Assembly: GCA_048941285.1 (NCBI GenBank)
Contig: JBHLNS010000029.1
Location: forward strand, 1-43,939
Length of the DNA: 43,939 nucleotides
Reading direction: 5' to 3'
From: Promethearchaeota archaeon
GTDB lineage: Archaea; Asgardarchaeota; Lokiarchaeia; Sigyniarchaeales; SOKP01
This document shows, in pieces, positions 17,408 through 38,989 of the stretch. Position numbers and translations under genes: made by a program. The first letter of the stretch is position 1. Each line of letters starts with the position of its first letter. The notes under the pieces are model-generated. The model was not told the DNA's origin. It did no database searches and was given only the letters and a program-made list of their open reading frames with translations.

Positions 17408-17799
17408 CCTAAATTAATTTTTAATTGGATCTTGAGAAAATTTCTTAGATTTTCACATGTTTTTGTTAAGATTGCTTTATCTTGATAAAATAAATGAATT
17501 CTAGGACAATCTTTATCATATACACAGTCTTTTTTTTGGGAATCATAAATAAGTGGATAATATCTACATCCTTGCGGACGGTAATTATAGATATTACATT
17601 TTTTGGTGGAAAAATCTAAAAATATACAATGATTATTTAAATTCTTGATTTGAAAATTCCCATTCTCATTTATAAAGGCAATATCTTGTTTCCTTATCTG
17701 TTTCGGATAAAATTTTATTATTAAGTCAATGTCTTGCTTAGAAAGCATCATTTCGGTTTGTAAACAACACTTTCCGCAATTTTCACATTTATTCTCCAT
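17404..17799 (-). CDS. YkgJ-like CxxCxxCC cysteine-cluster (Zn/Fe-S) protein
   Basis: CENCGKCC, CIFLD..KCNIYNYRPQGCRYYP. Confidence 0.88.
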   Translation of the reverse strand: MENKCENCGKCCLQTEMMLSKQDIDLIIKFYPKQIRKQDIAFINENGNFQIKNLNNHCIFLDFSTKKCNIYNYRPQGCRYYPLIYDSQKKDCVYDKDCPRIHLFYQDKAILTKTCENLRNFLKIQLKINLG

Positions 17800-17939
17800 A
17801 ATGATTTTTTATTTTTTCCTATGATTTATAAATTTAAAAGGAAGAAAAAATAACTATTAAAGTAAATAAGTATCAATTGCTTTTCAATAGAATAAAATTT
17901 TTTGTAAAATAAATTAAAAAATCATATATATGGGTAAAA

Positions 17940-18890: not shown

Positions 18891-18927
18891 AAAGTAAATG
18901 TAACTATATGAGGATTTAATTACAAAA

Positions 18928-20769
18928 ATGAATGAAAAATCTGAAGATAACGATCTTATAGAACAAGATGAGATTTTAAAAGAGGAAGTTAACCTTCAAT
19001 ATCATTTATATATTTTAATATTCTTTTTAATATTTTATAGTTCCTGGATTATCCCTGGTATTTACTTTTTATGGTATTTCCTTCAATTATTCATACCACG
19101 TTTTTTAGATGTTTCTGATTTTATCCTATTATTCATTGAATTAGATTCCTTAATAGTGTTTCTCTTAATGCCTCTAATACTTATTAGTTGTTATCTACTT
19201 CATTTATTTTTATTAGGAGTCGCTACGGGGATTTTTTGGAAAATTACTGAGAAAATCTCACCATCAAAGGAAGGTGTAATTCCACGAAATATTCGTAGCA
19301 AAGTAGTAAATTACTATCATATCAGAAGTTTTATGATCAAATATGGAAAGAACGCTTTTATGAAGGGTGTTTTTCCATGGTTCAATAATTGGTATTTCAA
19401 TTTTATAGGAGCTAGTAAAATAGGGAAAGGTACAACATTAGAGGAATCAGTGGTTAATGATAAATTCATTGAAATAGGGGAAAATTGTTATCTAGGTGTC
19501 AATTCGGCTTTAGCAACACATGTAGTAGAAGGAATTTTTGGTAATATCTCATATTTTAAGATTAAAGTAGGTAATAACGTTACAGGGGCTACAACGAATC
19601 TTATTGGCGCGGGGACAGAAATAAGCGATGATTCTTTTATGCTTCCTTTAGCTTGTGCGACAAAACACAGTATCGTAGGGAAGCAGGAAACAATTAATTA
19701 TTATTGGGGTATGCCATTGAGAAGAATCTTTAGAAAAAAGTTAATGAAATATTTAGGTGTATCAGCAAAAGACTTAGATAGAAATGAAAATATTAAAGGT
19801 TATGCTGATAAAGAATTACTTAAACAATTAAAAGCTAAAGCTTCCATTGAAGCCACGCTAGGTACCCAAAGCTTAACTGAGAAATTACCTATGGATTCAG
19901 AAAGCAGTGACAATTTAACAGAAAATGATTTAAAAATTGATTTTTGTACGAGTTCAGCAATTAGTAGAGTAAATCTTAAATTTTTAGCTGTTTATATACC
20001 AATATTTTGGCTAGCAGGGTTAATTATTTCAATTTTGTGGTATTGGTTTCTTTCTGGAGGGAACTGGACAATGGTAATAACTTTCCTCCCACTTACAATA
20101 TTTGGTTCAATCTATTTTTTTATTTTTGCTTGTATGCTCTTTAGCAAATTATTCTTAATTCTTATAAATCTAATTCATGAACCTAGAGAGGGGGTTTTTA
20201 AAGCTGAAATTGGTGATAAGGATTATGAATTCTGGATGATGAGAACCGAAATAAAAAAGATTGTCTTGTGGTTCATGCGGTATTCTCCATTTCCATGGTT
20301 AGATGTACTTGCTTTTAAATTGTTTGGAATTAATATGGATACCTCTAGTCATCTTAATGATACTTGGTGTGATGGTGAATTCATTAAATTTGGTAGAAAA
20401 AACTTAATCGGCCAGGGAGCAGTGATTATGTCGAGCATGGTAGTAGGGAAATATTTGATTATTAAAAAAGTGATATTTGATGATTATGTAATGGTTGGGG
20501 GGCATACAACTGTGGTACCTGGAACTATTGCAGGGAAGGAAACAGTCATTGGTGCGATTTCTACCACTACGATTAACCAAGTTCTTGAACCTGGTTGGAT
20601 TTATACAGGAATTCCTGTTATGAAATTCAAACCGAATAAATATGCTGGGTCTCGTAGAGATATCCTAATGAGGAAAGATGTAGATGCAGCGAAAAAATAT
20701 GAAATCGAACATGAAGTTAATATAGATGAAGATAAAAAAAAATTACTCAAACCTAATGAGGAAATATAA
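18928..20769 (+). CDS. Fused A+B membrane LbH acyltransferase-like protein (paralog of 15650)
   Basis: SPSKEGVIPRN, EGIFGNISYFKIKVG, IDFCTSSAISRVN, HEVNIDEDKKK. Confidence 0.85.
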   Translation: MNEKSEDNDLIEQDEILKEEVNLQYHLYILIFFLIFYSSWIIPGIYFLWYFLQLFIPRFLDVSDFILLFIELDSLIVFLLMPLILISCYLLHLFLLGVATGIFWKITEKISPSKEGVIPRNIRSKVVNYYHIRSFMIKYGKNAFMKGVFPWFNNWYFNFIGASKIGKGTTLEESVVNDKFIEIGENCYLGVNSALATHVVEGIFGNISYFKIKVGNNVTGATTNLIGAGTEISDDSFMLPLACATKHSIVGKQETINYYWGMPLRRIFRKKLMKYLGVSAKDLDRNENIKGYADKELLKQLKAKASIEATLGTQSLTEKLPMDSESSDNLTENDLKIDFCTSSAISRVNLKFLAVYIPIFWLAGLIISILWYWFLSGGNWTMVITFLPLTIFGSIYFFIFACMLFSKLFLILINLIHEPREGVFKAEIGDKDYEFWMMRTEIKKIVLWFMRYSPFPWLDVLAFKLFGINMDTSSHLNDTWCDGEFIKFGRKNLIGQGAVIMSSMVVGKYLIIKKVIFDDYVMVGGHTTVVPGTIAGKETVIGAISTTTINQVLEPGWIYTGIPVMKFKPNKYAGSRRDILMRKDVDAAKKYEIEHEVNIDEDKKKLLKPNEEI

Positions 20770-21965: not shown

Positions 21966-23843
21966 TTGCCAACAATTAATTATCCTTCTGAAGAGATTAT
22001 AAAACATCCAATTGGAGAAAAGAAAGATTATGATCATATTATCCTTTGGATGTTATACAATAACGAAGAATGTGAGTGGTCAGATTTTATACAGAAACCA
22101 CTTGAAATACCATCATCTTCTTTATCGCGTCATCTTATTGAATTAAGAAATGAAGGATATATTACTAAAATATCCAAGGGGCATTATCAAATCACGTCAG
22201 AAGGAAGAAAACGATTCCATGATCTGTCTAAAGCGGATTTAATGACTCGTAAATTGAGTTATCCTCCGGCTATAATTTTAAAGAGTGGAAGAAATTATAG
22301 AGATTGGATCCTGTGGATGGTCTATAATAATGCATATTGTAAATGGTCTGACTTTCTCGAAGAACCTCTTTCTATTAATCAATCATCGCTATCCAAAGAA
22401 ATAAATTTAATGTTAAAAAATGGATTTATTACAAAAGATCAAGAAACTAAGCAATACAATATAACTCATTTAGGAAAAAGAGAATATTCAAGAATGCTCC
22501 AAAACTATGATTTGGATCGTCAAACTATTTTAAACGAAGAAAGCAAACGTATAGAAAGTATAGCTAATAAAACTATAAAATTCTTCAAGAAATTTAAAAT
22601 AACAGACACACGTACTCAATTTAGATTTCTTAACAATATCATAAAATTAGATTACGAAAGGGTTAAACCAATGCTTAAAAACGAGGAAAATTTTCATAAA
22701 ATTCTATATTTTCTTTCATTAAATCATCCAAATCAATATCCAGACTTTATTACTCCTGAACAGTTTTCTAATAAATATGGGATTAAAGAGAATATGTTAA
22801 CCTATTATGTTGATGAAATTGTGCTAAATAACATATATCCAATAAAATTTTTCAAATTAGAAACAGAATTAGATAAACATTACTATTTTCAGGAGAATGG
22901 AAAATTAGAGACCATTATAAGAGCAATCACAGAGGATTATATAACCGAATACACCTATTTAAACAAATTATTTTCTAGAAAACTGGATCTTAATCTCATT
23001 ATCGATTCAATCTCAGAGGAAGTATGTACTTTTTTACTTGATAAAGATCTGATTGATACGCTAAAGAGTTTTTTACCAGATTACATCAATCACTTAGCTT
23101 ATAAAACCGAGACAAAGAGAGAATTTAGAGAATCATACGATAAATTAGAAGGATTAATATGGCAAAATATCTCAAATATTGTTGAAACACAGAGATTAAT
23201 ACATAAAGAAGATCATTATAAACAATTATTTGATGAAATTAATAGCAAAATAGAATCAAATCCAGAAAAAATCGAACTACATTATTCAAAAGTTCAACTA
23301 ATGATCTCTAATGCTGAATTTGATAACGCATTTAATTATTTAGATGAAATGATAACAATTTTTCCAAAACAAGAAAAGGATATTAGAATAAAAAAAGCTT
23401 CCCTCCTAAAGAAAAACAATGAATTCGAAGCGGGGTTTGAAATAATAAGTGATTTACTAATCAAAAATCCAAATGACATTGATCTCCTTGTCTACAAAGC
23501 ATATTGGTTGCAATATTTAAACAGAAAAGAAGAATCTTATGAAACAGTTCTTGACATTATAAATAGAAATCCAAATAAAGCTATCTATCATGATACTTAT
23601 GGAGAAATCTTGATGTACTTTGAGGAATACCAAAATGCAGTTAACGAGTTCCAAAAAGCGCTAGAGCTTGGAATTGAGGACTGGTATGTTCACCAAACTT
23701 ATATAAAATTAGGAATTTGTTATAAGGAGATTGGAAATAAGCAACAAGCAATTGAATTCCTTAGAATGGGAAAGAAGGATAATGATAATCAAAAATGGAT
23801 TACTATCGCAGATCTTTTTCTCGAAGAGATGAAAAGTATATAA
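21966..23843 (+). CDS. Transcription regulator with tandem winged-HTH (MarR-like) domains and C-terminal TPR repeats
   Basis: Two repeats YDHIILWMLYNN..C.W.DF...PL.I..SSLS..L...G.I.K..Y.IT..G; TPR helices (YHDTYGEIL..A...FQKALELG, KLGICY). Confidence 0.82.
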   Translation: MPTINYPSEEIIKHPIGEKKDYDHIILWMLYNNEECEWSDFIQKPLEIPSSSLSRHLIELRNEGYITKISKGHYQITSEGRKRFHDLSKADLMTRKLSYPPAIILKSGRNYRDWILWMVYNNAYCKWSDFLEEPLSINQSSLSKEINLMLKNGFITKDQETKQYNITHLGKREYSRMLQNYDLDRQTILNEESKRIESIANKTIKFFKKFKITDTRTQFRFLNNIIKLDYERVKPMLKNEENFHKILYFLSLNHPNQYPDFITPEQFSNKYGIKENMLTYYVDEIVLNNIYPIKFFKLETELDKHYYFQENGKLETIIRAITEDYITEYTYLNKLFSRKLDLNLIIDSISEEVCTFLLDKDLIDTLKSFLPDYINHLAYKTETKREFRESYDKLEGLIWQNISNIVETQRLIHKEDHYKQLFDEINSKIESNPEKIELHYSKVQLMISNAEFDNAFNYLDEMITIFPKQEKDIRIKKASLLKKNNEFEAGFEIISDLLIKNPNDIDLLVYKAYWLQYLNRKEESYETVLDIINRNPNKAIYHDTYGEILMYFEEYQNAVNEFQKALELGIEDWYVHQTYIKLGICYKEIGNKQQAIEFLRMGKKDNDNQKWITIADLFLEEMKSI

Positions 23844-24151: not shown

Positions 24152-25027
24152 ATGATTTCTAAAGTACTAATAATCATGTCAGGAGGGATTCTCTGCTATT
24201 CAAAGACATTTTTTGGACATATTGAAATTGAAGATGATTTTATAAGTGGATTTTTTACAGCTATCCATAATATCTCTGAGCAAATAGGTGGAGGAGAAAT
24301 AAAATCTTTGAATTTTAGAAACTTTAATATTATTTATTCCTACGATGATGATAAATTTTGTATTTTTATTTTACTTACGGATATCGATGATCCTGAGGAG
24401 GAAGTAAGAGAAAAATTACAATTAATGAAAAATGAATTCATAAAACGATATCGAAAAGATTTGATAAATTGGAATTCTGATATTGCCAAATTTGAGAAAT
24501 TTGATGAATTTGTAGAAGAAAATATATACATCCCTCCAAAAATATTGTTGGTTGGTGAAGTTGGAGTAGGGAAGACTTCAATATTGTATTTATTTCCAGG
24601 AGAGCTAATAATTGAATTGGATGATGATATGAATGAAATAATCCAAAAAACTATTGATATCTCTAAAATTACAAGATATAAAAAATGTTTATTGCGTGAA
24701 ATTGATTTAGAGGAACTTGTAAACAATTCAAAATTATATCAGCAACTATTAGATTCAGTAGATATAATTTGTTTAATTACTAGCTCAGGAGCAACAAATT
24801 TAGCAAACACTAAACAGTGGTTTTCATTATTAAAGCCAAAAGTGAAAAAGGGACAATTCTTTGTCATTGCGAATTTTCAAGATATGAAAAATATATCTTT
24901 TAAACCAAAGAAGATTGAAGAATTTTTTGGAGTGAAGACATTTGGGTTTTCAGCCATAGTTCCAGAAGCAAAAGAAAATATTTATTTAATTATGGATGAA
25001 ATGTTAAATAATATATTTCAAGAATAA
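24152..25027 (+). CDS. Longin/roadblock-like domain fused to an atypical small GTPase domain
   Basis: N-terminal ISGFFTAIHNISEQIGGGEIKSLNF; G1 GEVGVGKTS; G4-like ANFQD; G5-like FSAI; no DxxG. Confidence 0.8.
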   Translation: MISKVLIIMSGGILCYSKTFFGHIEIEDDFISGFFTAIHNISEQIGGGEIKSLNFRNFNIIYSYDDDKFCIFILLTDIDDPEEEVREKLQLMKNEFIKRYRKDLINWNSDIAKFEKFDEFVEENIYIPPKILLVGEVGVGKTSILYLFPGELIIELDDDMNEIIQKTIDISKITRYKKCLLREIDLEELVNNSKLYQQLLDSVDIICLITSSGATNLANTKQWFSLLKPKVKKGQFFVIANFQDMKNISFKPKKIEEFFGVKTFGFSAIVPEAKENIYLIMDEMLNNIFQE

Positions 25028-25043
25028 AATTTCAATACGTAAG

Positions 25044-25538
25044 ATGAAATTACAAGAAGATTTTGTGTTTCCAATTTATATTTATAAAGAAATACTTGAA
25101 GACATTAAATCATTATGCAGAAATTCAGAAGAAGAGATTTTCGGATATTTGATTGGTAATATTTTAAAATGGAATGAAAGAATATATACTGTGATCGAGG
25201 AATCATTATTTCTAATCGGAGCAGTATATAGTGATAAAACTTATACCTCTCAAATAGAGGGTACTGCGGGATTATATCAGAAAAAGTTTCAAAGAATTAA
25301 AAAAAAAAGAAACAATGATAATTTAAGAATTATTGGTTGGTGGCATTCTCATCCGAATTTAGGGTGTTTTTTATCTTCTACTGATTTATTAACTCAAAAA
25401 TATTTTTTTCCTGATGAATATCAAGTTGCTCTTGTTATTGACCCGGTTCGAAATGAATTTGAATTTTTTTGTATTGATAATAACACAAAAAAAGGCTACA
25501 AGCCATTAAGTTATGCTGTATTAAAAAACATTCATTAA
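25044..25538 (+). CDS. JAB/MPN+ (JAMM) metalloprotease, Rpn11-like deubiquitinase
   Basis: EIFGYLIG and GWWHSHPNLGCFLSSTD (E..HxHx7Sx2D), ALVIDP. Confidence 0.93.
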   Translation: MKLQEDFVFPIYIYKEILEDIKSLCRNSEEEIFGYLIGNILKWNERIYTVIEESLFLIGAVYSDKTYTSQIEGTAGLYQKKFQRIKKKRNNDNLRIIGWWHSHPNLGCFLSSTDLLTQKYFFPDEYQVALVIDPVRNEFEFFCIDNNTKKGYKPLSYAVLKNIH

Positions 25539-25546
25539 AAATAAAT

Positions 25547-26425
25547 ATGTCAAAAGAAAAAGACAACACTAAAGATTTCACTGTATATGGAATAGATTCT
25601 ATAGATTCAGATATATTTGATCGCCAAAAACGCATAAAAGGATGGAATCAAAGCAAAATTGCTGATTCAACAATAATGGTAATAGGAGCTGGAGCTATTG
25701 GTAATGAAGTTGTAAAAAATCTTGTATTAGTCGGGGTAGGCACAATTATTCTAATTGATTATGATTTTATTAATCCTTCAAACTTGAATCGCTGCCTTCT
25801 TTTCAATCTAGAAAATGCTGAAAAGAAAGAATACAAAGTGGATGCTGTAAAAAGTGCATGTCAAAAATTAAATCCAAAAGTAGAGATAAGAACTATTAAA
25901 GAAGATTTAAATGACATTGATAAAACACTTTATGAGAATTCTGATGTTATTTGTTCATGTGTAGATAATATTGAAGCGAGATTAGAAGCAAATAATTATG
26001 CATATTATTATGAAAAACCATTTGTAGATGCAGCAATTGATGAGTTCTTTGGTACAGTTCAATCAGTTTACTCGGAGGTGGAAGAAGCCCCGTGTCTTCA
26101 GTGTAATATTTCTGATATGGATTTAGAATTGATGTGGAAGAAATTCTCCTGTACCGGACAAGAAATTGACAATGAAAATGGTGAAACAATGGGAGTAATC
26201 CCTGCTATTATAACTACAACATCCATCATTGGGGGGTTACAAACACAACAAGTCTTGAAATTCATATTAGGACTTGAGTATTTCAAAGAAAAAAAGAATT
26301 GGGATCCAATTATTGGTCAACTCCTGATAGGAAAACAATTAAATTATAATGGACTTTTAAATAAATTTGAAGTTATAGAGAAATTAAAAAATCCAGAATG
26401 TTGGACATGTTCATTTAAAAAATAA
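25547..26425 (+). CDS. Ubiquitin-activating E1-like enzyme (ThiF/MoeB/E1 family)
   Basis: FDRQ, GAGAIG, DYDFINPSNLNR, CVDNIEAR, PCLQC, candidate catalytic FSCT, C-terminal CWTC. Confidence 0.93.
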   Translation: MSKEKDNTKDFTVYGIDSIDSDIFDRQKRIKGWNQSKIADSTIMVIGAGAIGNEVVKNLVLVGVGTIILIDYDFINPSNLNRCLLFNLENAEKKEYKVDAVKSACQKLNPKVEIRTIKEDLNDIDKTLYENSDVICSCVDNIEARLEANNYAYYYEKPFVDAAIDEFFGTVQSVYSEVEEAPCLQCNISDMDLELMWKKFSCTGQEIDNENGETMGVIPAIITTTSIIGGLQTQQVLKFILGLEYFKEKKNWDPIIGQLLIGKQLNYNGLLNKFEVIEKLKNPECWTCSFKK

Positions 26426-26454
26426 AAATAAGAAGAAAAAAGAGGTGAAAGAAT

Positions 26455-27021
26455 CTGCCGGAACTTCCTTATGAAATATGGAAAGATAGAATTGATAATG
26501 AACTAAATAATATAAAAAAGCTAGATGTTCTTGAAGAAAGTTCCATTAAAATGGATAATAATGGAGTAGATTTAATTTTAAATTTAACAGCTTTAGGTTT
26601 TGTTAAACAAGATAGTGATTTGACTCCAAAAAAATCTCATCGTGTATATCTAAAAATAAATCGTTCTTTTCCTTACCCTGGTGGAATAGATTTCTCATGG
26701 TTGTCGAGTATTTTTCATCCAAATATTCACCCAGTTGAATTATCCTTTTCAAGTGTAAAAGGAACTGGATATATTTGCCTGAACATTTTAAAGAAATGGT
26801 CACGTTTATCAGATTTGGTTACAACGATAAAAGCATTGAATATATTAATAGAGAATCCTAATCCTGAAGATCCTCTAGATTATCCTGAATGTATAGAAGC
26901 TGCAAACTACTTTAAAAAGCAAAGTATCGAGGAACTTAAGAAAAAGTATTCTATTGAAGAAGAAGATAAGGATGTAGAAAAAAGAGAAGATGATGACATT
27001 ATTATTATAGAGGATAAATAA
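26455..27021 (+). CDS. Ubiquitin-conjugating E2 (UBC) enzyme, probable CTG start
   Basis: FPYP, IFHPNI, GYICLNIL..WS, ENPNPEDPL. Frame stays open upstream of ATG 26551 to a TGA at 26446 and encodes the helix-1-like KDRIDNEL; CTG 26455 lies 6 nt after SD GAGGTGA. Confidence 0.9.
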   Translation: MPELPYEIWKDRIDNELNNIKKLDVLEESSIKMDNNGVDLILNLTALGFVKQDSDLTPKKSHRVYLKINRSFPYPGGIDFSWLSSIFHPNIHPVELSFSSVKGTGYICLNILKKWSRLSDLVTTIKALNILIENPNPEDPLDYPECIEAANYFKKQSIEELKKKYSIEEEDKDVEKREDDDIIIIEDK

Positions 27022-27026
27022 AAAGG

Positions 27027-27290
27027 CTAATCTTTTAAACCACCTATAACTCTCGTCCATAAAATCAATTTCTGGTCCTCTTTAAGACCATATTTATGGA
27101 TAACATCTGCTATTGTAATCTTATTTGGTAGTTCTTTATTATTGAGAACTAAAGTATAAGAACGTTGCTCCGTACTGATAATACCCATATGTTTCACAAT
27201 TATATCAATTATTCTTTCAATATAATGATGATTTTTAACATCTAATTTAATAATTCTTCCAGTTCTTGAGTCCTCAACGGAAATTCTCAT
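27027..27290 (-). CDS. Ubiquitin-like protein, pro-form (GG followed by LKD)
   Basis: Beta-grasp pattern MRISVED..G.II.LDV....I..I....L..N.EL....TI....GLKE...L.L; ends RVIGG-LKD. Confidence 0.85.
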   Translation of the reverse strand: MRISVEDSRTGRIIKLDVKNHHYIERIIDIIVKHMGIISTEQRSYTLVLNNKELPNKITIADVIHKYGLKEDQKLILWTRVIGGLKD

Positions 27291-27390
27291 ATTCTCTTTT
27301 ACCTAAGATTTCTTTTTTATGTGTTAATTATTGTTTAAAAGCATTTAAAAGTTAATATTTTTGTCAATAGAAATAATTTCTGGAATAAAT

Positions 27391-27624
27391 TCAACTAGAA
27401 TCAGTAGATCTACTCTCTTTTCTAGATATCAGATACCTAATAAATCCAATAAAAAAGGGAGTTATCCAAACAATTATAACCCAAACAGCTGCGTTAACTT
27501 TTCTTTTTTTAGCATCTCTATACACCCAAATTACTATAAAAATTAATATTGCATAAGGAATTATTAAAAAAATTAAAAGTAAAAATGGAATTAAGATTCC
27601 TATATCAATTTGTAGCATATACAT
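27391..27624 (-). CDS. Small membrane protein, PLDc_N-like (WVYxDAxxR)
   Basis: Two TM segments around IWVYRDAKKRKVNAAVW; ATG 27624 directly follows the upstream stop at 27626. Confidence 0.75.
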   Translation of the reverse strand: MYMLQIDIGILIPFLLLIFLIIPYAILIFIVIWVYRDAKKRKVNAAVWVIIVWITPFFIGFIRYLISRKESRSTDSS

Positions 27625-27625
27625 A

Positions 27626-28648
27626 TTATACGACTTGAATATCACTTTTATCTTCTTGTTTTTCTTTTAATTTCTTTTCATCAAAAGGGGTTTCGCAGAC
27701 CCAACAACTATTTTCTAAATTACTTAACGCATTCGAGCATCTCACACAATAAAGAACTTCGCATTCAGGACAAAGATAATTTAATCGTGAAACCTTACTT
27801 TTACACACAATACATCTTTTCTTTTCTATGGAAAAGGTAATATCTTCTTGCGCAATATTTATTGGTTTAGTAAATACAGTCATAAAATCCTGAAGCTCTC
27901 CACTTTCTGCATCTAAAGAAGGTCCAGAAGATCTAATCCTCTTAACCATTTGATATATAATATATATAATGACAAAGATAAGTACCACTACTGAAATTAA
28001 GATTATTATTAGACTTAAGATATTAAGAGGTAAATTCGTAAAAGTTGTTAAACTTAAAAAAGTAATAATGAGGGCAACTAAAGATATAATTATCCAGTTC
28101 GTAAATTTACTATAAAAAAACTCTATATTAATTAATAATGGCGAAGTTGCTATCAGAATACCAATAAAAACAAGAGAAGATGAAATTCCTGGTAAAAAAA
28201 CATTCAATGCTTTTAATACTGTTGCCTCAAAAGTCCATCCTATTAAAATCACGATAAGTCCTATTGCCATTATAGAAGAAATTGCTTTAAATTCAGCTTT
28301 TAATTTGATAGAAAACCAAACAAATATCAAACATAGAACTACTATATTGATAAATATATAAAAATAGGCAAACTCGTAGAAGTAATAAATAATAATATAA
28401 AATAAATTGTTTGTCAAAAATATACTTTCTATATCACCAGTATATGTCCCTTCTAACAGATAATCACTAAAGAATAAGAAAAATCTCACAATTCCAAGGC
28501 TAAACCATAAGCTTGCAAGACCATACAATAATAATTTTTCATGATCGATCTCTTTATTTTTTCCTTTACTCACGAAAAAGATCCCGCAGATAATTAATGT
28601 AAAAGCTGTTAAACTTGAGAGAAATCGTTCCAGAGGATTAAAAACAAT
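27626..28648 (-). CDS. Multi-pass membrane protein with C-terminal C4C4 RING-like zinc finger (candidate E3), probable ATT start
   Basis: About 7 TM, then C-x2-C-x10-C-x2-C-x4-C-x2-C-x10-C-x2-C. The frame upstream of GTG 28573 reads ATT-VFNPLERFLSSL, matching MVFDPIERFFSSM of paralog 38990. Confidence 0.82.
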   Translation of the reverse strand: MVFNPLERFLSSLTAFTLIICGIFFVSKGKNKEIDHEKLLLYGLASLWFSLGIVRFFLFFSDYLLEGTYTGDIESIFLTNNLFYIIIYYFYEFAYFYIFINIVVLCLIFVWFSIKLKAEFKAISSIMAIGLIVILIGWTFEATVLKALNVFLPGISSSLVFIGILIATSPLLINIEFFYSKFTNWIIISLVALIITFLSLTTFTNLPLNILSLIIILISVVVLIFVIIYIIYQMVKRIRSSGPSLDAESGELQDFMTVFTKPINIAQEDITFSIEKKRCIVCKSKVSRLNYLCPECEVLYCVRCSNALSNLENSCWVCETPFDEKKLKEKQEDKSDIQVV

Positions 28649-28733
28649 AAATAAAACGATCCAACTTCACCCTGTAAAATTAATTGATATTAGCGTGTAA
28701 ATTATTTTATCTTACTTTTATATTTAAATTATC

Positions 28734-29279
28734 TTAAATAAGTTGAGATTTGAGATACAGATTTTCAATAATATCTTCAAATGCTTTATGAACTCCTTGC
28801 CCAGTTTTAGCGGAAGTTATATAATAACCAATAAAATTGTATTTATTAACTCTCTCCTGAATTTTAGTATGGTCTAGATTATCTAGATCAATTAAATCCT
28901 CTTTATTAGCCCAAAGAACCGTAGGTATGTCTCCACAGAATCGTTTAATCTCATCATACCAATTTTTAATATGTTTAAAACTATTTCTTCCAAGATCATT
29001 CTCTTCTAGACTATAAACAATTATTGCAGCATCACTGTTTCTATAGAATGATGGTCGTAAAAAATCGAGATCACGTTGTCCTGCAATATCCCAAAATAAT
29101 AATCGAATATGATCTTTATCAATTTGCTTATCGAATTTTGAAAATTGAGCTCCAATTGTCTCGACATAATCAGTTTCAAAAGTACCTAACGTGAACTTTT
29201 GAATGAGGGATGTCTTCCCTACCCTTCCGTCTCCAATTAATGTAATTTTAAACCGTAATTTTTTTCCAGAATTGCCCAT
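28734..29279 (-). CDS. Rab-like small GTPase
   Basis: G1 GDGRVGKTS, switch I TIGAQF, G3 WDIAGQ, G4 NKED, G5 SAKTG; no C-terminal prenylation motif. Confidence 0.93.
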   Translation of the reverse strand: MGNSGKKLRFKITLIGDGRVGKTSLIQKFTLGTFETDYVETIGAQFSKFDKQIDKDHIRLLFWDIAGQRDLDFLRPSFYRNSDAAIIVYSLEENDLGRNSFKHIKNWYDEIKRFCGDIPTVLWANKEDLIDLDNLDHTKIQERVNKYNFIGYYITSAKTGQGVHKAFEDIIENLYLKSQLI

Positions 29280-29473
29280 AGAATAATATTTCTTCAGAAA
29301 CTCGTATTTAACTTAAATTTAGCTTTTTAATTATAAAAAACTTTGTTAAATATCATATTTGTTAGAAATTCTGATGAATCAAAACTGATAGATATTCCAA
29401 AAAAAGTTAAATAACATTCATGTACAAATTATAATTAACTTAAGAAATTTCAAATAATGAAGACTAAGCATTA

Positions 29474-30514
29474 GTGATGATAAGAAGAAACATTTTTGCA
29501 ATTATCATTATGATCCTTATCGGTTTTGGAATGATTATTTCTTTACCTATAGTAATTCTTTCAATTAGTGTCTTATCTTATCACAGTATTGAATATAATA
29601 ACTTTTTCTATTATTACAATAAATCCATGATTTCCCCGAAAATAAAATCATTAAATATTAATCTAGATGTAGGAGAGATCGAAGTTAATTATATTTATTC
29701 CCCTGTCAATTATGCTATTAAACTTGAACTAAATATCGAATTAATTAGTCAAAAAAATTTTGGTAGTTCATATTTAGATTATTTTGAACTTCCCACTTGG
29801 CATTATGAAAACAACGCAATTAAATTTATAATGAGCCTTAAACCAGATGTAATGGATATATGGTTTAATGCCTCTCTTTGGAAGAGCCAAGAAGTAAATT
29901 TAACTGCGACTATTAATGCGAACTTCTTATATAGTGTTAATACTACAATAAATTACATTGGTAATGTTGATATATTAGTACCAGCGGCTACAAGCATTCA
30001 TAACGTGGATGTAAAAATCAACCAAGGAAATATCTATTATGATTTTTTTTATTGTACTATTGAAGGCAATATTACTGGGGCTACTGTTTCTGGAGATATC
30101 ACATTAAAAGGAAATAATGTTAAATATACAAAAAATAACAAGATGTCTCTAACTAATGATGATGGCTTAATTATATTTAATATTTTTCAAGAAAGAGCTA
30201 TGAATGCAAATCTAACTGCCGTTGGAAAAACAAAAACAGGTGAAATCAAAATTCAATATCGTGATTTATCTGAGAATATCGGAGCTAAGTTTACTTTTTA
30301 TAATTATTCAGGTTCATGGCCAGATGAATATAATTCTTGGGTTGGTTTTGAAGATCCTGAATCTCTCTATGATCCCCCTCCCGTAAGACAAGTATTCACA
30401 TCTTTCGATTTCCAAACTGTGATAAACACCTATAACTTTTCGTTGTATAGAGATTTTTTAAACAAACCGTCGTTTCCATATACTGTTGACCTTTCCAGTA
30501 TTCCAAAAACTTGA
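29474..30514 (+). CDS. Membrane-anchored beta-strand-rich extracellular protein (DUF4097/adhesin-like)
   Basis: N-terminal TM; repeats LNINLDVGEIEV, VKINQGNI, TVSGDITL, TKTGEIKI; paralog of 40143. Confidence 0.65.
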   Translation: MMIRRNIFAIIIMILIGFGMIISLPIVILSISVLSYHSIEYNNFFYYYNKSMISPKIKSLNINLDVGEIEVNYIYSPVNYAIKLELNIELISQKNFGSSYLDYFELPTWHYENNAIKFIMSLKPDVMDIWFNASLWKSQEVNLTATINANFLYSVNTTINYIGNVDILVPAATSIHNVDVKINQGNIYYDFFYCTIEGNITGATVSGDITLKGNNVKYTKNNKMSLTNDDGLIIFNIFQERAMNANLTAVGKTKTGEIKIQYRDLSENIGAKFTFYNYSGSWPDEYNSWVGFEDPESLYDPPPVRQVFTSFDFQTVINTYNFSLYRDFLNKPSFPYTVDLSSIPKT

Positions 30515-30585
30515 ATCTGTTATAAAAATAATTTTATTTCGAAAAAAAAAAAAGACTAAAAAAAAAGGAGTTATAATTTGATTAT

Positions 30586-32289
30586 TTAGACAAAAAACAT
30601 ATTTTTAAAAGCCCCAGCGCCCCAATCCCCCCAACCTCGTAGGTTTGATCGATATACATCATACCATACACAAGAATATAGCAATGCAACAGGAAAAACT
30701 TCTTCAATTAAACGTTTTTGGATATTATAATAGAGATGGGCTCTCTGTACTAAATTAGTTTCTACTAGTCCCTCTTCCATCCATTCTTGAACAATACTAT
30801 CATTTGTTTGTTGATAATTAGATTCTCCATCAATTTTACTTGAAAATACAGCATTAATAGTGTTTGCAGGATCATTAAAATCAATAATCCATCCTACCCA
30901 GAATAAATCTATATTTGAAGTAAATATATTGTTAAAATTGTCTGGTGAAGTCAGACCAAGGACATCTACTTTTACACCAATTTGTTTGAGACATTCTAAT
31001 ACTATACCAGGAAGTTCCCCCCTAAATGTTTCTTCCTTTCCAAGAACATATGATATATTATATATTCCTAAAGGAGTTGGCCCATTTGCTAATGTTTCCC
31101 ATTCATTTCCAGTAGTAATATTATCATTTACTATTAAACTTTCAGTTCCAGGCCAATTTGCATCTTTTAAAACTTGGCGAGCAATTGAAATATTATAATA
31201 TGGAACATCAAAATCCCCCCAATTAGAATAGAGTGTTCCTAAGGGTAAGGGGGATTGACATCTTATTTGAGAGCCATGTGAGTGAAAATCATGAAGTTCA
31301 AGTATAGCGCTATAATTTAATGCATATGATATTGCCTTTCTCATGGTAGTATTAATCCTTTGGTTATTCATTCCTAAGTAATCAAATCCCTTTTCCACAA
31401 AATCATCCACTACAATTGTAGTATCATTCATGTAAGCTTCCCAGTAGCTGTCGTTTCCTACGGCATAATCTGTCTCTTCTGCAAAAAATATTTCATTACT
31501 TTCAATATAATTAACAGAAAGGAAAACTAATTTATCTATGACAGGTTTAGGTCTACCCCAATAATTTTCATTTTTTTCAAGAGTTGTATTAACATATACA
31601 ATATTTGATTTAAAAATATACGGGCCGGTACCAACTACTTTTTCAGTGGAAGCATTAAGATACCTATTTTTCGGAGTAGATGTAGGGGATATTATATATG
31701 CCTGAGGATGTGTGAGTAAAGATCGAAAGGGAACATAAGGTTTATTCAACACAAATCTTACTATATAGTCATCGATAACTTCAGTCCTATTTAGAATTAG
31801 TGTTCCATCAGGATGATACCACAAATAAGTTAAAAATGGATGTGAAAAATTTTGGAGCCTATCAAAGTTCCACTTAACTGCAGAGGCATTAAATTGTGTT
31901 CCATCATGAAATCTAATCCCTTCTCTAAGTGTACAAGTAAAATTTAATAGATCATCACTCCAAACTCCTTCTAGAGCTAGGTGAGGAACGTTTTCATGAT
32001 AATCCGTAGTTTGATTTACTTTTTCGTTGAATAATGGTTCAGCAATTTGCACAAAAGCGATGGGATCATAGAAGTATACAATAACAGGGTCTATAACCTC
32101 AAGTCCACCACCATATCCCATTATAAAAGTACCTCCTTTTCGTTTATCTAAATTAATTAGATAAATTCCTCCAATAATACCTGCGATTGCTATAGAAGCG
32201 ATTATACTTCCACTTATAAGTGGTTTTTTTAACTCATTTAATACTCTTTTTGGTCCTTTCTTCTTGGATTTCGGTTCTTTTTGGCTCAT
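30586..32289 (-). CDS. Family 5 (OppA/DppA-like) solute-binding protein with N-terminal membrane anchor
   Basis: FTCTLREGIRFHDGTQFNASAVKWNF, VGTGPYIF, MRKAISYALN, GWIIDFNDP, YNIQKRL. Confidence 0.9.
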   Translation of the reverse strand: MSQKEPKSKKKGPKRVLNELKKPLISGSIIASIAIAGIIGGIYLINLDKRKGGTFIMGYGGGLEVIDPVIVYFYDPIAFVQIAEPLFNEKVNQTTDYHENVPHLALEGVWSDDLLNFTCTLREGIRFHDGTQFNASAVKWNFDRLQNFSHPFLTYLWYHPDGTLILNRTEVIDDYIVRFVLNKPYVPFRSLLTHPQAYIISPTSTPKNRYLNASTEKVVGTGPYIFKSNIVYVNTTLEKNENYWGRPKPVIDKLVFLSVNYIESNEIFFAEETDYAVGNDSYWEAYMNDTTIVVDDFVEKGFDYLGMNNQRINTTMRKAISYALNYSAILELHDFHSHGSQIRCQSPLPLGTLYSNWGDFDVPYYNISIARQVLKDANWPGTESLIVNDNITTGNEWETLANGPTPLGIYNISYVLGKEETFRGELPGIVLECLKQIGVKVDVLGLTSPDNFNNIFTSNIDLFWVGWIIDFNDPANTINAVFSSKIDGESNYQQTNDSIVQEWMEEGLVETNLVQRAHLYYNIQKRLIEEVFPVALLYSCVWYDVYRSNLRGWGDWGAGAFKNMFFV

Positions 32290-32440: not shown

Positions 32441-32986
32441 TTAGATTGATATAGACTTATGATATAAATTATTTATAATGGCATCAAAAGCCTCATGAAC
32501 TTCTTGTCTGGTTTTAGCTAAAATTATATAATAAACAATAAAATCGTATTTATTAACTTTTTTTTGAATTTTAGAATAGTTAAGATTGTTTATATTAATT
32601 AAATCTTCTTTATTAGCCCAAAGAACAGTGGGTATATTTTTACAGAACCTTTTAATCTCTTCATACCAATTTTTAATAAGATTAAAGTTATTTCTTCCAA
32701 GGTCATTCTCTTCAAGGTTATAAACTATTATCGCAGCATCACTATCTTTATAGAATGATGGTCATAAAAAATCGAGATCCCCATGCCCTGCGATATCCCA
32801 AAATATCAATCGAATATGATCTCTATCGATCTGCTTATCGAATTTCGAGAATTGAGTATCAATAATCTCAACGTAGTCAGTCTCAAAAGTACCAAATCTA
32901 AACTTTTGAATAAGGGAAGTTTTTTCTACTCGACCATCTCCAATCACAGTAATTTTATACCGTAATTTTTTTCCAGAATTACTCAT
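32441..32986 (-). pseudogene. Rab-like GTPase pseudogene (paralog of 28734)
   Basis: Same length (546 nt) as the intact copy; in-frame TGA at 32764-32762 where the paralog has CGA (Arg); G1 GK>EK, TIGAQ>IIDTQ, TSAKTGQG>ILAKTRQE. Confidence 0.85.
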
Positions 32987-33104
32987 AAAATGGAATAAAT
33001 TGAAGAAGATTATGTTTAACAATTGATCAGCTTTTCAATTATGAAAAATTTTGTTAAAATCGGTCGAATAATTATTAACAGAATCAAATTTTAAAAAAAA
33101 AGAA

Positions 33105-33215: not shown

Positions 33216-33914
33216 CTATTTTTTTCTCTTTCGAATAATTACAATCGCAATTATTATTGCAACTGCTCCTATTCCTGAGATTAATATTATCCATAGATAC
33301 AATGGCATCCCGGGAGCTACTGCAAGCGCGTTTGTTGATTCAAATTCATAATGATTCCAATCTGTTAGATGATTAATTGTTCCATTCACTAGGAAACCTT
33401 TAGTTTTTTCATACCAAAGTACACTTCCATAAGCATCCTCCAATTGCCAAACTCTCATAGTTTCATGCATCGCTTCACCAGTAACAGTGAATATAACGTC
33501 ACCATCAAAACCATGGACACACCTATATATATTACACATTTTCAATTGATCATTAATAGAAACATCAGTGTAAATCCAAAATACTGAATGATTACCTTCA
33601 AATGGGCCAAAATTTATTACATTTGATATAACTCTATTGGTAGTATTTATATCCCAATACCCAATATCATTAATAGGATATTTTAACCAATTCTCAATAT
33701 TAAACATATCATCTGATATCTTAGAAAACGTTAGGCTCATAGATATCTGTTGCCCTGGCATTGCTGAAAGAGTCAAAGTATGGTTAACAACCATGCCATC
33801 GAAGATCCCTACCTTATTAGAAATACCAATAGTAGAAAGGTGTGAAAAGAATATCGAAAATGTAATTAATATCAGAAAAAATTTCATTAAATTTGATTTT
33901 TTTATTTTTAACAC
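33216..33914 (-). CDS. Cell-surface hypothetical protein with signal peptide and C-terminal TM anchor
   Basis: Signal-like N-terminus, LWYEKTKGFLV motif, APGMP + TM + RKRKK tail. Start uncertain (the GTG is part of SD GGAGGTG). Confidence 0.75.
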   Translation of the reverse strand: MLKIKKSNLMKFFLILITFSIFFSHLSTIGISNKVGIFDGMVVNHTLTLSAMPGQQISMSLTFSKISDDMFNIENWLKYPINDIGYWDINTTNRVISNVINFGPFEGNHSVFWIYTDVSINDQLKMCNIYRCVHGFDGDVIFTVTGEAMHETMRVWQLEDAYGSVLWYEKTKGFLVNGTINHLTDWNHYEFESTNALAVAPGMPLYLWIILISGIGAVAIIIAIVIIRKRKK

Positions 33915-33959
33915 CTCCTAAGATTAAATTAGGGCTATAGATATTGATCCAATCTTTTT

Positions 33960-33999
33960 ATTTTTAGATTTAGCTTCGAAAGATTTACTAAAGTCCGAA
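33960..33999 (-). promoter_or_regulatory. TTCG-N17-CGAA motif / promoter, copy 2
   Basis: Minus strand TTCGGACTTTAGTAAATCTTTCGAAGCTAAATCTAAAAAT upstream of the 33216-33914 gene. Confidence 0.65.
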
Positions 34000-34137
34000 G
34001 TTTGTTGAATTTTGAATTTAACCAAGAAATCTAAAGTACTTTAATATTTAAGTATATGAAGTTTTTTTTCCCTAAATAACATCTTAAGTTATATATTTAC
34101 TATGAATAGAATAAAAACAAGATTGTAAAAAAAAAAT

Positions 34138-34215
34138 TATAGAATAGGAGGATTGATTGTGTTTATATGATCATCAGAGAAGCCATATAGATAAATTTAA
34201 CCCTCCAATTCTATA
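34138..34215. terminator. Conserved long hairpin, copy B (downstream of the 34294 gene)
   Basis: TATAGAAT-A-GGAGG..TTTATATG-loop-CATATAGA..CCTCC-A-ATTCTATA, preceded by an A-tract. Confidence 0.55.
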
Positions 34216-34293
34216 CTTTAATTAATAATTTCAACCCTCGTTTGTTAATTCTCCCTTCTTATATTTTATTGATTAATAAAATTGCTCAAGTTG

Positions 34294-35619
34294 TTAAAAT
34301 TTACGGAAAGATTTAAGAAATTCTCTCTTCTGTTCTAATGCTTCTTGTATTTCAGAACCAGGGGAGTTGCCTTGCATATTATTCATTCCGACTATGATAT
34401 TGTTGTCACCACCGATATCCAACACATTTGTTTTTGTAGAGCCTCCGACAATTACGCATTCACTCGCAAAAAGCAAGACAATTGGAGCCCAATAGGCATC
34501 AACATTTTGAACATTATTACCAAGCAGCAAATTGTTATAGGCATAATAACATGCAATAGCATAATCTGCAGTACCACGAATGATGTTGTTAATGATAAAA
34601 GCATCCTGCACCATTGTTGTCCAAATTCCACCCCAGAATGTATCACACAAAATTTTATTACTTGAGACGATTGACTCGAGTGATCCCGATCCTGAATAAT
34701 CCTCTAAGCAAATGCCATCTGCCATTATTGATGGGTTTAAAGTGTTATGAGATATAAGCCACTGACAAGGGGATGGAGCAAATTGCATTGCCCAAATACC
34801 AGCAAAAGCGTTTGCCTCAATATAATTATTAGAAATCTCAAATTTTGAATTGCTATTATCAGCATTAATTACTCCAATAGCACCTCCTACGATCGAGTTT
34901 GACTTAATTGTCAATTCACAATTCATTAATCCCCATGCTGTAATACCTAACCATAGTGAATTGAATTCACAATCAGTAATAATATGTCTTCCAGTTGTAG
35001 TTAGACCTCCTCCATATTCAACTCCTACTCTAACATTATAGCTTTTAACTGAATAAAGAGGATGCCAGGGATCATAAAGTGCTGTCCCTTCATGACCTGC
35101 AAATTCAACATTTTCAATTCGAGATTTTATATCTCCTGTTATTAAGATGGCTGATAATAAATCGTACCACCAACCGTCTGGTGGTGGGGGTCCCCATGGT
35201 TCAGCAGGCTCATAAGGTGTAATGTCAAAACTTAAATCAGAGATATCTACATCTCCTCCTAAAAATGTAAATATATGAGGGCTACCCATAGGACTAGAAA
35301 CCCCTGATGCGCCAGGGTCTAATCCTCTAAGGACATCAATTTTGGTAAGATCCTTACCTGTTCCCTTAAATGTACCATAGAAATTTACAACAAAAATTTC
35401 ATTAGTATAAAATTGTCCAGCGGTTAGCTGAACTGTGTCTCTTGGACCTGCTGCATCGAATGCTGCTTGTATGTTTGCAGTATCATCTCCACCTGATGGA
35501 GATACTATAAATGTCGTTGAATCAGCGTAGGCTGGCCCGATTATCAAAATATAAAAGCCAAAGAACATTGCTAATGTTAAAATTCCGAGGATCAGACTAG
35601 ATTTTGTTTTCATTTTCAT
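34294..35619 (-). CDS. Secreted right-handed parallel beta-helix (pectin lyase/NosD-like) protein
   Basis: Signal peptide (AYA-D), GGDDTANIQAAFDAAG..TVQLTAG, repeated I.NN.I motifs. Confidence 0.82.
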   Translation of the reverse strand: MKMKTKSSLILGILTLAMFFGFYILIIGPAYADSTTFIVSPSGGDDTANIQAAFDAAGPRDTVQLTAGQFYTNEIFVVNFYGTFKGTGKDLTKIDVLRGLDPGASGVSSPMGSPHIFTFLGGDVDISDLSFDITPYEPAEPWGPPPPDGWWYDLLSAILITGDIKSRIENVEFAGHEGTALYDPWHPLYSVKSYNVRVGVEYGGGLTTTGRHIITDCEFNSLWLGITAWGLMNCELTIKSNSIVGGAIGVINADNSNSKFEISNNYIEANAFAGIWAMQFAPSPCQWLISHNTLNPSIMADGICLEDYSGSGSLESIVSSNKILCDTFWGGIWTTMVQDAFIINNIIRGTADYAIACYYAYNNLLLGNNVQNVDAYWAPIVLLFASECVIVGGSTKTNVLDIGGDNNIIVGMNNMQGNSPGSEIQEALEQKREFLKSFRKF

Positions 35620-37285: not shown

Positions 37286-37292
37286 AATTATA

Positions 37293-37332
37293 TTCGTACT
37301 TTTTAAAATATTCCGAAGCTTAATCTAAAAAT
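37293..37332 (+). promoter_or_regulatory. TTCG-N17-CGAA motif / promoter, copy 4 (upstream of the second Ubl)
   Basis: TTCGTACTTTTTAAAATATTCCGAAGCTTAATCTAAAAAT. Confidence 0.65.
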
Positions 37333-37425
37333 GATTAGCTGACTATGATTTATTTAATAATAATTATAATATGGGTTTTACTATTTTATTAATATCTTGA
37401 ATTATTTAAAAAAGACTTCCAAAAA

Positions 37426-37680
37426 ATGATATTATCAGTTGAAGATACACGAGGAGGCAAGATAATAAAACTAGATGTCAATGAGAGACATTTAATTGAA
37501 AGTATTATAACTATTGTGGTTAAGCATATGAATATCATAACTTCTGAGCAACGTTCTTTTGCTCTAATATATAAAGGAAAAGAATTACCCAATTCAATTA
37601 CAATTGGACAAGTAGTTCAAGATTACGGTTTAAAGGAAAATGATAAACTAGAATTATGGGCAAAAGTAATTGGAGGTTAA
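37426..37680 (+). CDS. Ubiquitin-like protein, mature form (ends in GG)
   Basis: Close paralog of 27027; ends WAKVIGG-stop. Confidence 0.87.
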   Translation: MILSVEDTRGGKIIKLDVNERHLIESIITIVVKHMNIITSEQRSFALIYKGKELPNSITIGQVVQDYGLKENDKLELWAKVIGG

Positions 37681-37681
37681 C

Positions 37682-38707: not shown

Positions 38708-38787
38708 TAATTACACCCCAGAGATACTTTCTCTTTTTTATTTTTACTTAATTTATTTATAGATTTTAATGTTAATTAAGATATTAG

Positions 38788-38985: not shown

Positions 38986-38989
38986 TTAT

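Follow-up and report, generated by a model that had tools for sequence, protein, structure and literature searches.

A candidate membrane-associated ubiquitin-like conjugation system encoded in repeated gene modules of a Promethearchaeota archaeon

The stretch of DNA considered here, a contig of 43,939 nt from a Promethearchaeota archaeon (JBHLNS010000029.1 of assembly GCA_048941285.1, hereafter the window), carries genes for a ubiquitin-like modifier (Ubl), for enzymes of the E1, E2 and JAB types, and for a multi-pass membrane protein that ends in a RING domain. This raises the question of whether these genes make up a working conjugation system and, if so, what a candidate ligase (E3) in the membrane has to do with the surface-protein genes beside it. 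An earlier note on the window had proposed that an extracellular ligand, bound by a solute-binding protein (SBP), could be relayed by a seven-transmembrane (7-TM) RING ligase that tags a GTPase or a winged helix-turn-helix (wHTH) regulator. The present analysis sought to answer the question from the gene set itself, from its recurrence in related genomes and from structural models, and we propose that the locus would encode a lineage-specific modular ubiquitin-like system at the cell membrane. The window is contig C40 of a 3.55-Mb genome of 101 contigs that is 94% complete; its GC content is about 27-34%, and that of the genome is 29%. NCBI taxonomy lists Promethearchaeota as an archaeal phylum. 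The relatives compared below were assembled from metagenomes and carry the labels Promethearchaeota, Promethearchaeia or Lokiarchaeia; submitters called some of them Hermod-, Hod- or Thorarchaeota. We take Promethearchaeota to be the Asgard phylum.

All eight open reading frames (ORFs) that the earlier note had placed in two convergent operons were confirmed, the operons meeting at 27021-27027, where 5 nt separate the end of the E2 gene (27021) from the stop of the first modifier gene, Ubl 1 (27027). On the plus strand, a longin-like GTPase gene (A) is followed by the JAB, E1 and E2 genes with spacers of 16, 8 and 125 nt; on the minus strand, the start of a gene for a small membrane protein (F) overlaps the end of the membrane RING gene (G) by 20 nt. 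The JAB, ThiF, UQ_con, Ras and SBP_bac_5 matches (Table 1) are above the curated Pfam cut-offs. Motif conservation was assessed in homologues taken from 58 related loci and 20 further regions. The E2 keeps its HPN motif and Cys76 in at least 95% of 60 sequences, and its nearest solved relatives are the eukaryotic Rad6/Ubc2, Ubc13 and UbcH5 (PDB). The JAMM motif of JAB (E...HSH...S..D) is kept in at least 95% of 55 sequences, as are, in at least 95% of 61, the GxGxxG motif, the CxxC pair and the presumably catalytic Cys202 (in an FSCTG loop) of the E1. Ubl 1 has no Pfam match, and aligns end to end with ubiquitin in the PDB, GG on GG (phmmer, E 3e-4). The GG is kept in at least 95% of Ubl homologues; V[IV]GG occurs in 57 of 57 distinct homologues, 11 of which end there and 46 of which carry 1-9 extra residues. 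In Caldiarchaeum, biochemical experiments showed that the JAMM protease cleaves off the tail after GG and that transfer depends on the RING, according to the portion of the report available to us (PMC5654768), and the tail arrangement here is the same as the one that undergoes JAMM-dependent maturation there. By its motifs the enzyme set looks active, and the full list of parts for activation, conjugation, ligation and removal that had been drawn up from the letters holds on the Pfam matches, the PDB match of the Ubl, the conserved catalytic motifs and the RING cysteines.

The candidate ligase, G, carries eight cysteines in the spacing C-x2-C-x10-C-x2-C-x4-C-x2-C-x10-C-x2-C, and all eight, together with Trp291 and Pro269, are invariant across 32 members of the G family, in an alignment that includes the paralogue G' described below. 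Its AlphaFold2 (AF2) model (pLDDT 69.6) comprises a helical bundle followed by a small zinc-type domain, and the best Foldseek matches are all RING or U-box structures (3lrq, RING1B, Rad18 and the EL5 RING-H2 domain, the last at an rmsd of 2.0 Å over 48 columns). The earlier reading of G as a 7-TM RING protein stands as regards a RING on a multi-pass protein, and needs amending in the helix count: from the annotated GTG start there are six hydrophobic segments, and the seventh is found only upstream, where the frame stays open for 31 codons (28574-28666, minus strand), encodes the first helix conserved in the family (FNPLERF...), and has no ATG, GTG or TTG among those codons. Either a non-canonical start is used or this copy has lost the helix. 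Under both counts the RING is predicted to be cytoplasmic, since the N-terminal loop, which follows the first helix, is rich in lysine. In the model, G has only short extracellular loops. F, the small protein encoded beside G, has two TM segments and no Pfam match. In other Promethearchaeota Ub operons (L022:10990-14400, L047 and L058), two or three different tandem multi-pass TM-RING genes lie beside the Ubl gene and are alike only in the RING domain.

The flanks are as the earlier note described them: an anchored protein (I), an SBP (J) and, on the other side, a DNA-binding regulator at 21966-23843. I has no Pfam match at E<=0.1; its Atlas structural neighbours are clusters of DUF4097, Toast_rack_N and LiaF-like_C proteins, at TM-scores of 0.55-0.67 and feature matches of 0.89-0.91. 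Both I and J begin with a short basic N-terminus followed by a single TM segment. The ratio of observed to expected N-x-S/T sequons is 1.57 in I, 2.34 in its paralogue I' and 2.95 in J (range 1.6-3.0 across I, I', J and J'), compared with 0.83 in nine pooled cytoplasmic proteins, an enrichment that fits a location of I and J outside the cell. The predicted cytoplasmic tails differ in size: the median for J is 19 aa, including 6 Lys and 1 Arg (24 homologues), and the median for I is 2 aa (28 homologues). A prediction of the complex between the ectodomains, I(35-346) and J(48-567), scored 0.00 and speaks neither for nor against binding. J scores far below the cut-offs of the NCBIfam nickel, glutathione and opine SBP models. 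It had been described as an SBP without a transporter, which is true of the window, where no ABC permease or ATPase gene is found, and is not special to this locus: the 11 BPD_transp_1 (permease) hits all lie on contigs other than those of the genome's eight SBP_bac_5 genes (C28, C32, C33, C40, C65, C69 and C91; two of the genes are in open frames 819 and 1324 aa long), in an assembly of the completeness and fragmentation given above. The orphan state of J was dropped as an argument for signalling because all eight genes are orphans by contig, and SBP_bac_5 proteins of this organism may generally have non-transport roles.

Comparison of the window ORFs with one another revealed a second paralogous module at 36023-42898, consisting of wHTH', Ubl2, A', F', G', I' and J' and lacking E1, E2 and JAB. 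A' aligns within the A family, and G' has seven hydrophobic segments and the RING pattern. This second module, and with it a private Ubl for each module, was absent from the earlier note and changes the picture. In the genome as a whole, Ubl, F and G are each families of exactly two members, every one encoded in the window, and close paralogues of I and J occur only in the window.

Whether this association is conserved was asked of related genomes in two sets. In the E2-anchored set, 58 of 66 loci were of Promethearchaeota type, and 31 had at least 5 kb on both sides of E2 (full-flank loci). E1 and Ubl are present in all 31 of these and A and JAB in 30 each. The core of A-JAB-E1-E2 facing Ubl recurs in 30-31 of the 31, and the convergent arrangement is for that reason more than chance. 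Some TM-RING gene is found in 20 of the full-flank loci, a wHTH gene in 11, a G-like gene in 10, and I and J in seven each. I is present in 11 of 11 loci that have both a G-like gene and F, and both I and J are absent from all 21 full-flank ubiquitin (Ub) loci that have no G-like gene. A search for G in 400 genomes of the phylum gave matches in 78, among them 73 of 134 genomes in GTDB family f1 and 4 of 4 in f4, the latter weak and confined to the RING; the other GTDB families among the 400 genomes gave none.

The G-anchored set comprised 20 regions. Eleven lie at close G hits, four of them repeating contigs of the E2-anchored set and two overlapping each other, and the module is present in ten of the eleven, the remaining one (L110) having only G and F. 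A distant subfamily of RING proteins of about 400 aa with 8-9 TM segments was also recovered, and 10 of 10 such regions were without any module part. When the two sets were pooled into 20 distinct close G genes, F was adjacent in 18, I within 1.5 kb and J within 3 kb in 17, and a wHTH paralogue within 6 kb in 17; the linkage of SBP, regulator and GTPase is thus conserved elsewhere, as the proposed relay had called for. At least three gene orders occur: that of the window, with A-JAB-E1-E2 facing Ubl-F-G and then I facing J; a second with J facing I, followed by G-F-A-JAB-E1-E2 facing Ubl and wHTH; and a third, that of satellite modules without the enzymes. Three modules stand in tandem on one contig. 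I and J duplicate as pairs, up to three pairs per G. Orthologous satellite modules in L006, L102 (two modules) and L104 are of type 2 for all seven parts, and the type calls of G, F, A, Ubl and wHTH agree with one another in 12 of 20 modules.

Table 1. Features of the window: shared enzymes, module 1 and module 2
Feature	Position	Strand	Evidence
wHTH-TPR regulator, module 1	21966-23843	+	Pfam HTH_34 2.1e-9, MarR 1e-5, several TPR families
A, longin-like and divergent small-GTPase protein	24152-25027	+	ORF, AF2 model, Foldseek
JAB/MPN metalloprotease, predicted Ubl tail processing and deconjugation	25044-25538	+	Pfam JAB 9.9e-12
E1-like adenylating enzyme, ThiF/MoeB size, 292 aa	25547-26425	+	Pfam ThiF 4.2e-48
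E2, UBC fold	26551-27021	+	Pfam UQ_con 1.2e-9
Ubl 1, ubiquitin-like modifier, ...RVIGG+LKD	27027-27290	-	phmmer vs PDB, polyubiquitin 3e-4
F, small 2-TM protein	27391-27645	-	ORF, two hydrophobic segments
G, multi-pass membrane protein, cytoplasmic C-terminal C4C4 RING (predicted), candidate E3	27626-28573	-	Cys pattern, hydrophobic segments
H, Ras-family small GTPase, Rab-like	28734-29279	-	Pfam Ras 1.1e-38
I, type-II anchored protein, Toastrack/DUF4097-like beta-helix ectodomain	29474-30514	+	Atlas structural neighbours, N-terminal TM
J, membrane-anchored SBP_bac_5 solute-binding protein, Lys-rich cytoplasmic tail	30586-32289	-	Pfam SBP_bac_5 2.8e-54, N-terminal TM
H', decayed duplicate of H	32453-33022	-	tblastn 76% identity over 98% of H
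wHTH', module 2	36023-37285	+	38% identical to 21966-23843; Pfam HTH_45 9e-11, HTH_34 1e-7
Ubl 2	37426-37680	+	61% identical to Ubl 1; Pfam ubiquitin 2e-4, 21.5 bits, below 25.4 cut-off
A', longin-GTPase paralogue	37682-38671	-	43% identical to A over 147 aa; aligns within A family
F', small 2-TM protein	38788-38985	-	48-55% identical to F
G', 7-TM RING protein	38990-39967	-	44% identical to G; 7 hydrophobic segments, RING pattern
I', Toastrack-like ectoprotein	40143-41129	+	35% identical to I
J', anchored SBP_bac_5 protein	41132-42898	-	41% identical to J; PF00496 6.6e-66

The system also has to be placed within the genome as a whole, which holds five UQ_con hits and a second, more canonical Ub cluster at C41:1267-6311 with JAB, E2, E1 and three ubiquitin-family hits above the Pfam cut-off. 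[quoted passage not shown] Given that second cluster and the location of the Snf7 genes, the window encodes a divergent Ub-like system of its own, separate from that cluster and unlinked to ESCRT genes. Outside the phylum, Micrarchaeota (DPANN) contigs L064-L068 encode UBC-type E2 proteins 33-37% identical to that of the window, with an E1 within about 4 kb in four of the five and a JAB within about 2 kb in all five; tblastn found no homologue of the Ubl, the TM-RING protein or A on these contigs.

The longin-GTPase label given to A stands on the order of its secondary structure, on weak longin profiles and on a GTPase fold match, with a proviso about hydrolysis. In the AF2 model (pLDDT 84.7, pTM 0.79), DSSP assigns the N-terminal domain the elements E2-9, E13-19, H27-45, E52-54, E58-64, E70-77, H82-105 and H111-124, that is, bb-a-bbb-aa. 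The order b-b-a-b-b-b-a-a is that of the longin fold. Among 25 A N-terminal domains, weak profile matches were obtained to Fuz_longin_1 in 16 (best E 0.0012), to Longin in nine and to Robl_LC7 in five, and a profile of this domain searched against PDB sequences gave nothing below E 0.9. A Foldseek search with the whole of A, which is dominated by the GTPase domain, matched Rab, Arf, Ras and Rho structures at about 1e-8 through the C-terminal domain; the Atlas neighbours are Promethearchaeota families with Arf, Ras and Roc domains, a few of the clusters being labelled Roadblock/LAMTOR2. The family keeps the P-loop GxGVGKT[ST], an invariant NFQD (the Lys of NKxD replaced by Phe) and FSA. The G3 DxxG motif and the catalytic Gln are absent from A, the aligned segment LREIDLEEL having neither Gly nor Gln, so A is GTPase-like and not a canonical GTPase, and any GTP hydrolysis by it may not be canonical. 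Sister-clade A proteins of 791-880 aa (L015:5702-8344, L021:5753-8359 and L011:5935-8310) carry a C-terminal carbon-nitrogen hydrolase domain (CN_hydrolase, nitrilase superfamily), above the cut-off in three of three tested (E 5e-10 to 2e-8), which hints that A could couple an amidase-type activity to the Ub system. In L016, L031 and L038, three tandem A paralogues precede JAB-E1-E2.

The other GTPase, H, had been called a Rab. It has a Ras-family G domain, with additional matches to Roc (1e-28) and small_GTP (9e-23). Rab GTPases are recognised by a C-terminal prenylation cysteine. H ends in ...LYLKSQLI, without a cysteine, and is better described as a Ras-family GTPase. Orthologues at 55% identity or more are found in 21 of 58 loci, where their position varies, and the genome has 59 GTPases of the H type. 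The duplicate H' shows marks of decay in an in-frame TGA at an Arg codon, a P-loop changed from GKT to EKT and DIAGQ changed to DIAGH.

From these parts the following course of events can be proposed. One set of E1, E2 and JAB would be shared by two or more modules, each of which would contribute a private Ubl, an A protein, a membrane E3 made of G and F, a wHTH regulator and an I/J surface pair. JAB would trim the tail after the GG of the Ubl and later remove the tag, E1 would activate the Ubl and E2 would carry it. The cytoplasmic RING of G would then recruit the charged E2 (E2~Ubl) and tag the membrane-proximal cytoplasmic parts of I and J, the Lys-rich tail of J being the most likely acceptor, and such tagging could set the surface level of the I/J receptor pair through extraction, degradation or sorting. 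A might be an adaptor or switch whose action depends on nucleotide, and transcription of the module might be under the control of the wHTH protein. Sequence and comparison demonstrate the parts with their motifs, the placement of the RING protein in the membrane, as predicted, and a linkage that is conserved; ligase activity of G, binding of F to G, a client role for I or J, and the roles suggested for A and the wHTH protein are what we infer. We consider it likely that the system carries out conjugation and that its membrane E3 has a functional tie to I and J; the direction of that tie, with the G/F ligase tagging its own I/J pair, is a tentative proposal to which we give slightly less than even chances.

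Several observations weigh against this reading. Every step is predicted from sequence, comparison and models, and ORF calling and TM counting relied on simple in-house scripts. At 292 aa the E1 is no larger than MoeB/ThiF, and neither a ubiquitin-fold domain nor a Cys domain can be made out in it as a separate unit. G is called a probable RING ligase, and not a proven one, because its best Pfam RING model, zf-C3HC4_3, scores below the cut-off (E 0.007, 16.6 bits against 27), because Foldseek with the whole of G gave no match at E<=0.001, and because its TM bundle was matched by Foldseek to no solved fold (rows for G-protein-coupled receptors and transporters had a probability of about 0.1 or less). 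The Lys-rich tails of J, which were compared within module SBPs alone, may simply reflect the positive-inside rule in a genome of such low GC content. Bacterial Toastrack domains are predicted to be intracellular, in the part of the source available (PMC11237479), which is opposite to the topology of I. Type-1 and type-2 calls of the parts conflict within eight of the 20 modules; most of these belong to the other genus, and their scores are close to equal. All linked cases belong to GTDB family f1, mostly to genera g1 and g12, and because they come from one family they are not independent. Finally, tagging of I and J as clients leaves the per-module Ubl, longin-GTPase and regulator unexplained.

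This last difficulty is where transmembrane signalling does better. Under it, J would bind an external ligand with I as a co-sensor, and the G/F ligase would tag A or the wHTH-TPR protein with the module's own Ubl and so switch transcription, each module being a sensory channel; a regulator, a GTPase and a Ubl for each module are what parallel channels would be expected to have. I and J, moreover, multiply and have diverged more quickly than G, F, A, Ubl and wHTH, which is common in sensor domains, and since 8 of 8 SBP_bac_5 genes have no permease on their contigs, the SBPs may have roles other than transport. Orphan SBPs are known to feed sensors, as in LuxP-LuxQ and TorT-TorS. Bacterial Toastrack proteins of the LiaF type are, as far as the available part of the source goes, tied to membrane signalling and wHTH regulators (PMC11237479). 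Against these points, G and F lack any domain with a known part in passing on conformational signals, the TM bundle of G matches no solved fold, its modelled extracellular loops are short, a local regulator is equally normal for an ordinary operon, and both the tagging of A or wHTH and the step that transmits the ligand signal are purely hypothetical. The anatomy fits I and J as clients of the ligase at least as well as it fits a relay of ligand from the SBP, and we regard signalling as rather unlikely. Its most elaborate form, receptor-coupled ubiquitin channels in which SBP and Toastrack sensor gate the 7-TM RING protein and a private Ubl is read by its own longin-GTPase and wHTH-TPR protein, seems to us doubtful.

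The linkage might instead carry no function at all, I and J being ordinary surface or nutrient-binding proteins kept in place by shared ancestry and the TM-RING protein having substrates encoded elsewhere. The confinement of linked cases to one GTDB family and mostly two genera agrees with this, as do orphan SBPs being the rule in the genome and the synteny, in the closest relatives, of other neighbours (the hexapeptide TM proteins and the 232-aa and 441-aa proteins described below). We nevertheless judge it improbable, for the G-F-I-J block stays intact when it lies on the other side or strand of the core operon or is copied without E1, E2 and JAB, I and J occur in none of the 21 Ub loci lacking a G-like RING and in none of the ten distant-RING regions, and sets of paralogues only about 35-60% identical retain all seven parts. 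A role in defence against viruses or in the turnover of surface receptors, with kinship to the bacterial E1/E2/JAB defence operons (Bil, and CBASS Cap2/Cap3), is suggested by an E1 adenylation domain and a JAB next to a Ubl, by matches of E1 and JAB to the generic PADLOC E1-E2 and JAB models (E 7e-19 and 3e-8; the NCBIfam 6A-MBL cap2_3 model is far below its cut-off) and by surface proteins that duplicate in tandem and diverge quickly. Unlike those systems, however, the window has E1 and E2 as separate proteins and an E2 of eukaryotic UBC type; no PADLOC family is matched by E2, Ubl, RING, F, H or I, and the core operon is near-universal in the full-flank loci, unlike patchy defence islands. 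This makes the defence reading very improbable. Beta-grasp proteins that end in GG also serve as sulfur carriers. That the Ubl and E1 take part in sulfur transfer of the MoaD/ThiS-MoeB type, and not in tagging, could be argued from the small E1 and its scores against NCBIfam ThiF/MoeB-type models, all of them far below curated cut-offs; it is the least probable of these explanations and close to negligible in our judgement, because a conserved UBC-type E2 (HPN, Cys), a RING and a JAB stand beside the E1, 46 of 57 Ubls need removal of a tail, and the window holds no rhodanese or cofactor-synthesis gene.

Set against described systems, the proposed membrane ligase has its closest functional counterparts in eukaryotes, where the MARCH family, Hrd1 and Doa10/MARCH6 are multi-pass membrane proteins with a cytoplasmic RING. 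G would work by analogy with these, having a predicted cytoplasmic RING on a multi-pass protein where it could tag membrane proteins; unlike them it has a RING of C4C4 type, not RING-CH or RING-H2, no sequence relation to them was detected, and its TM bundle is unmatched. The operon of Caldiarchaeum subterraneum encodes Ub, E1, E2, a small RING protein (srfp) and Rpn11, as given in the accessible part of its description (PMC5654768). The same five activities, a pro-Ubl whose tail after GG is removed by a JAMM protease, a UBC-type E2 and a cross-brace RING are predicted here from the genes; whereas the RING of that operon is small and soluble, the one in the window is the C-terminal, all-Cys C4C4 domain of a protein with six or seven TM segments paired with a 2-TM protein, and the operon also has a longin-GTPase and is tied to surface proteins. 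Asgard ubiquitin-ESCRT clusters resemble the window in their set of E1, E2, RING and Ubl (PMC9192718), and the Vps23 steadiness box is reported to be ubiquitinated through an Asgard E1/E2/RING E3 cascade (bioRxiv 10.1101/2023.07.25.550441). In the available parts of these two sources, however, such clusters adjoin ESCRT-I/II/III genes and have soluble RINGs, unlike the window with its lack of any ESCRT gene.

Likenesses to the accessory genes are also partial. As in the LiaF/Toastrack modules, a membrane-anchored Toastrack-type beta-helix protein is linked to a wHTH regulator; in the part of that survey that could be consulted, the partners are two-component kinases together with PspC, and an intracellular location is predicted for the domain (PMC11237479), whereas here the domain is predicted to lie outside and the partners are a RING ligase candidate and an SBP. 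The fusion of a longin domain to a small GTPase domain in A recalls the Asgard longin/Roadblock-GTPase fusions, none of which is linked to a ubiquitin operon in the consulted portion of their description (bioRxiv 10.1101/2020.10.19.343400); A, by contrast, opens the operon in 30 of the 31 full-flank loci and is without DxxG. Thus, Asgard and Caldiarchaeum ubiquitin systems with soluble RINGs, longin-GTPase fusions and bacterial Toastrack signalling modules are established, to the extent that the sources cited cover them. In full-text searches, supplements and subscription papers aside, we found no description of a multi-pass membrane RING in an archaeal Ub operon, of a RING linked to an SBP and a Toastrack protein, or of private Ubls for each module.

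The archaeal ligases tested to date are small soluble RINGs; with a candidate ligase in the membrane whose gene is linked to a surface pair, a private Ubl, a longin-GTPase and a regulator, the module offers a testable candidate for the first pathway of membrane-protein ubiquitylation outside eukaryotes. It bears on when ubiquitin control of membrane proteins arose, in endoplasmic-reticulum-associated degradation (ERAD), endocytic down-regulation and receptor signalling, and it suggests an origin of ubiquitin tagging at membranes before that of eukaryotes. The sharing of one set of E1, E2 and JAB by two or three modules in parallel also amounts to a natural experiment in the evolution of specificity between Ubl and E3. 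If the receptor-coupled channels were real, one such enzyme set would serve several orthogonal 'ubiquitin codes', and both membrane-E3 logic of the MARCH, ERAD or endocytic type and signalling by paralogue-specific Ubls would be Asgard inventions predating eukaryotes.

Some further features of the locus were noted. Contigs from four DNA sequencing runs contain pieces identical to the window with no indels, the open frame upstream of the GTG of G included; the best of these runs is probably the source sample, and the agreement is therefore not independent. Between the two modules (33216-35619, minus strand) lie genes for a 232-aa protein with a TM segment at both ends and for a 441-aa anchored right-handed beta-helix (NosD-like) protein, and both proteins recur beside modules in L006, L007, L037, L044, L048 and L102-L109. 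At 4020-6678 and 15650-20769 the window encodes six multi-TM paralogues with weak matches to hexapeptide/left-handed beta-helix proteins, a family that also adjoins the wHTH gene in L007, L008, L010, L103, L107 and L109.

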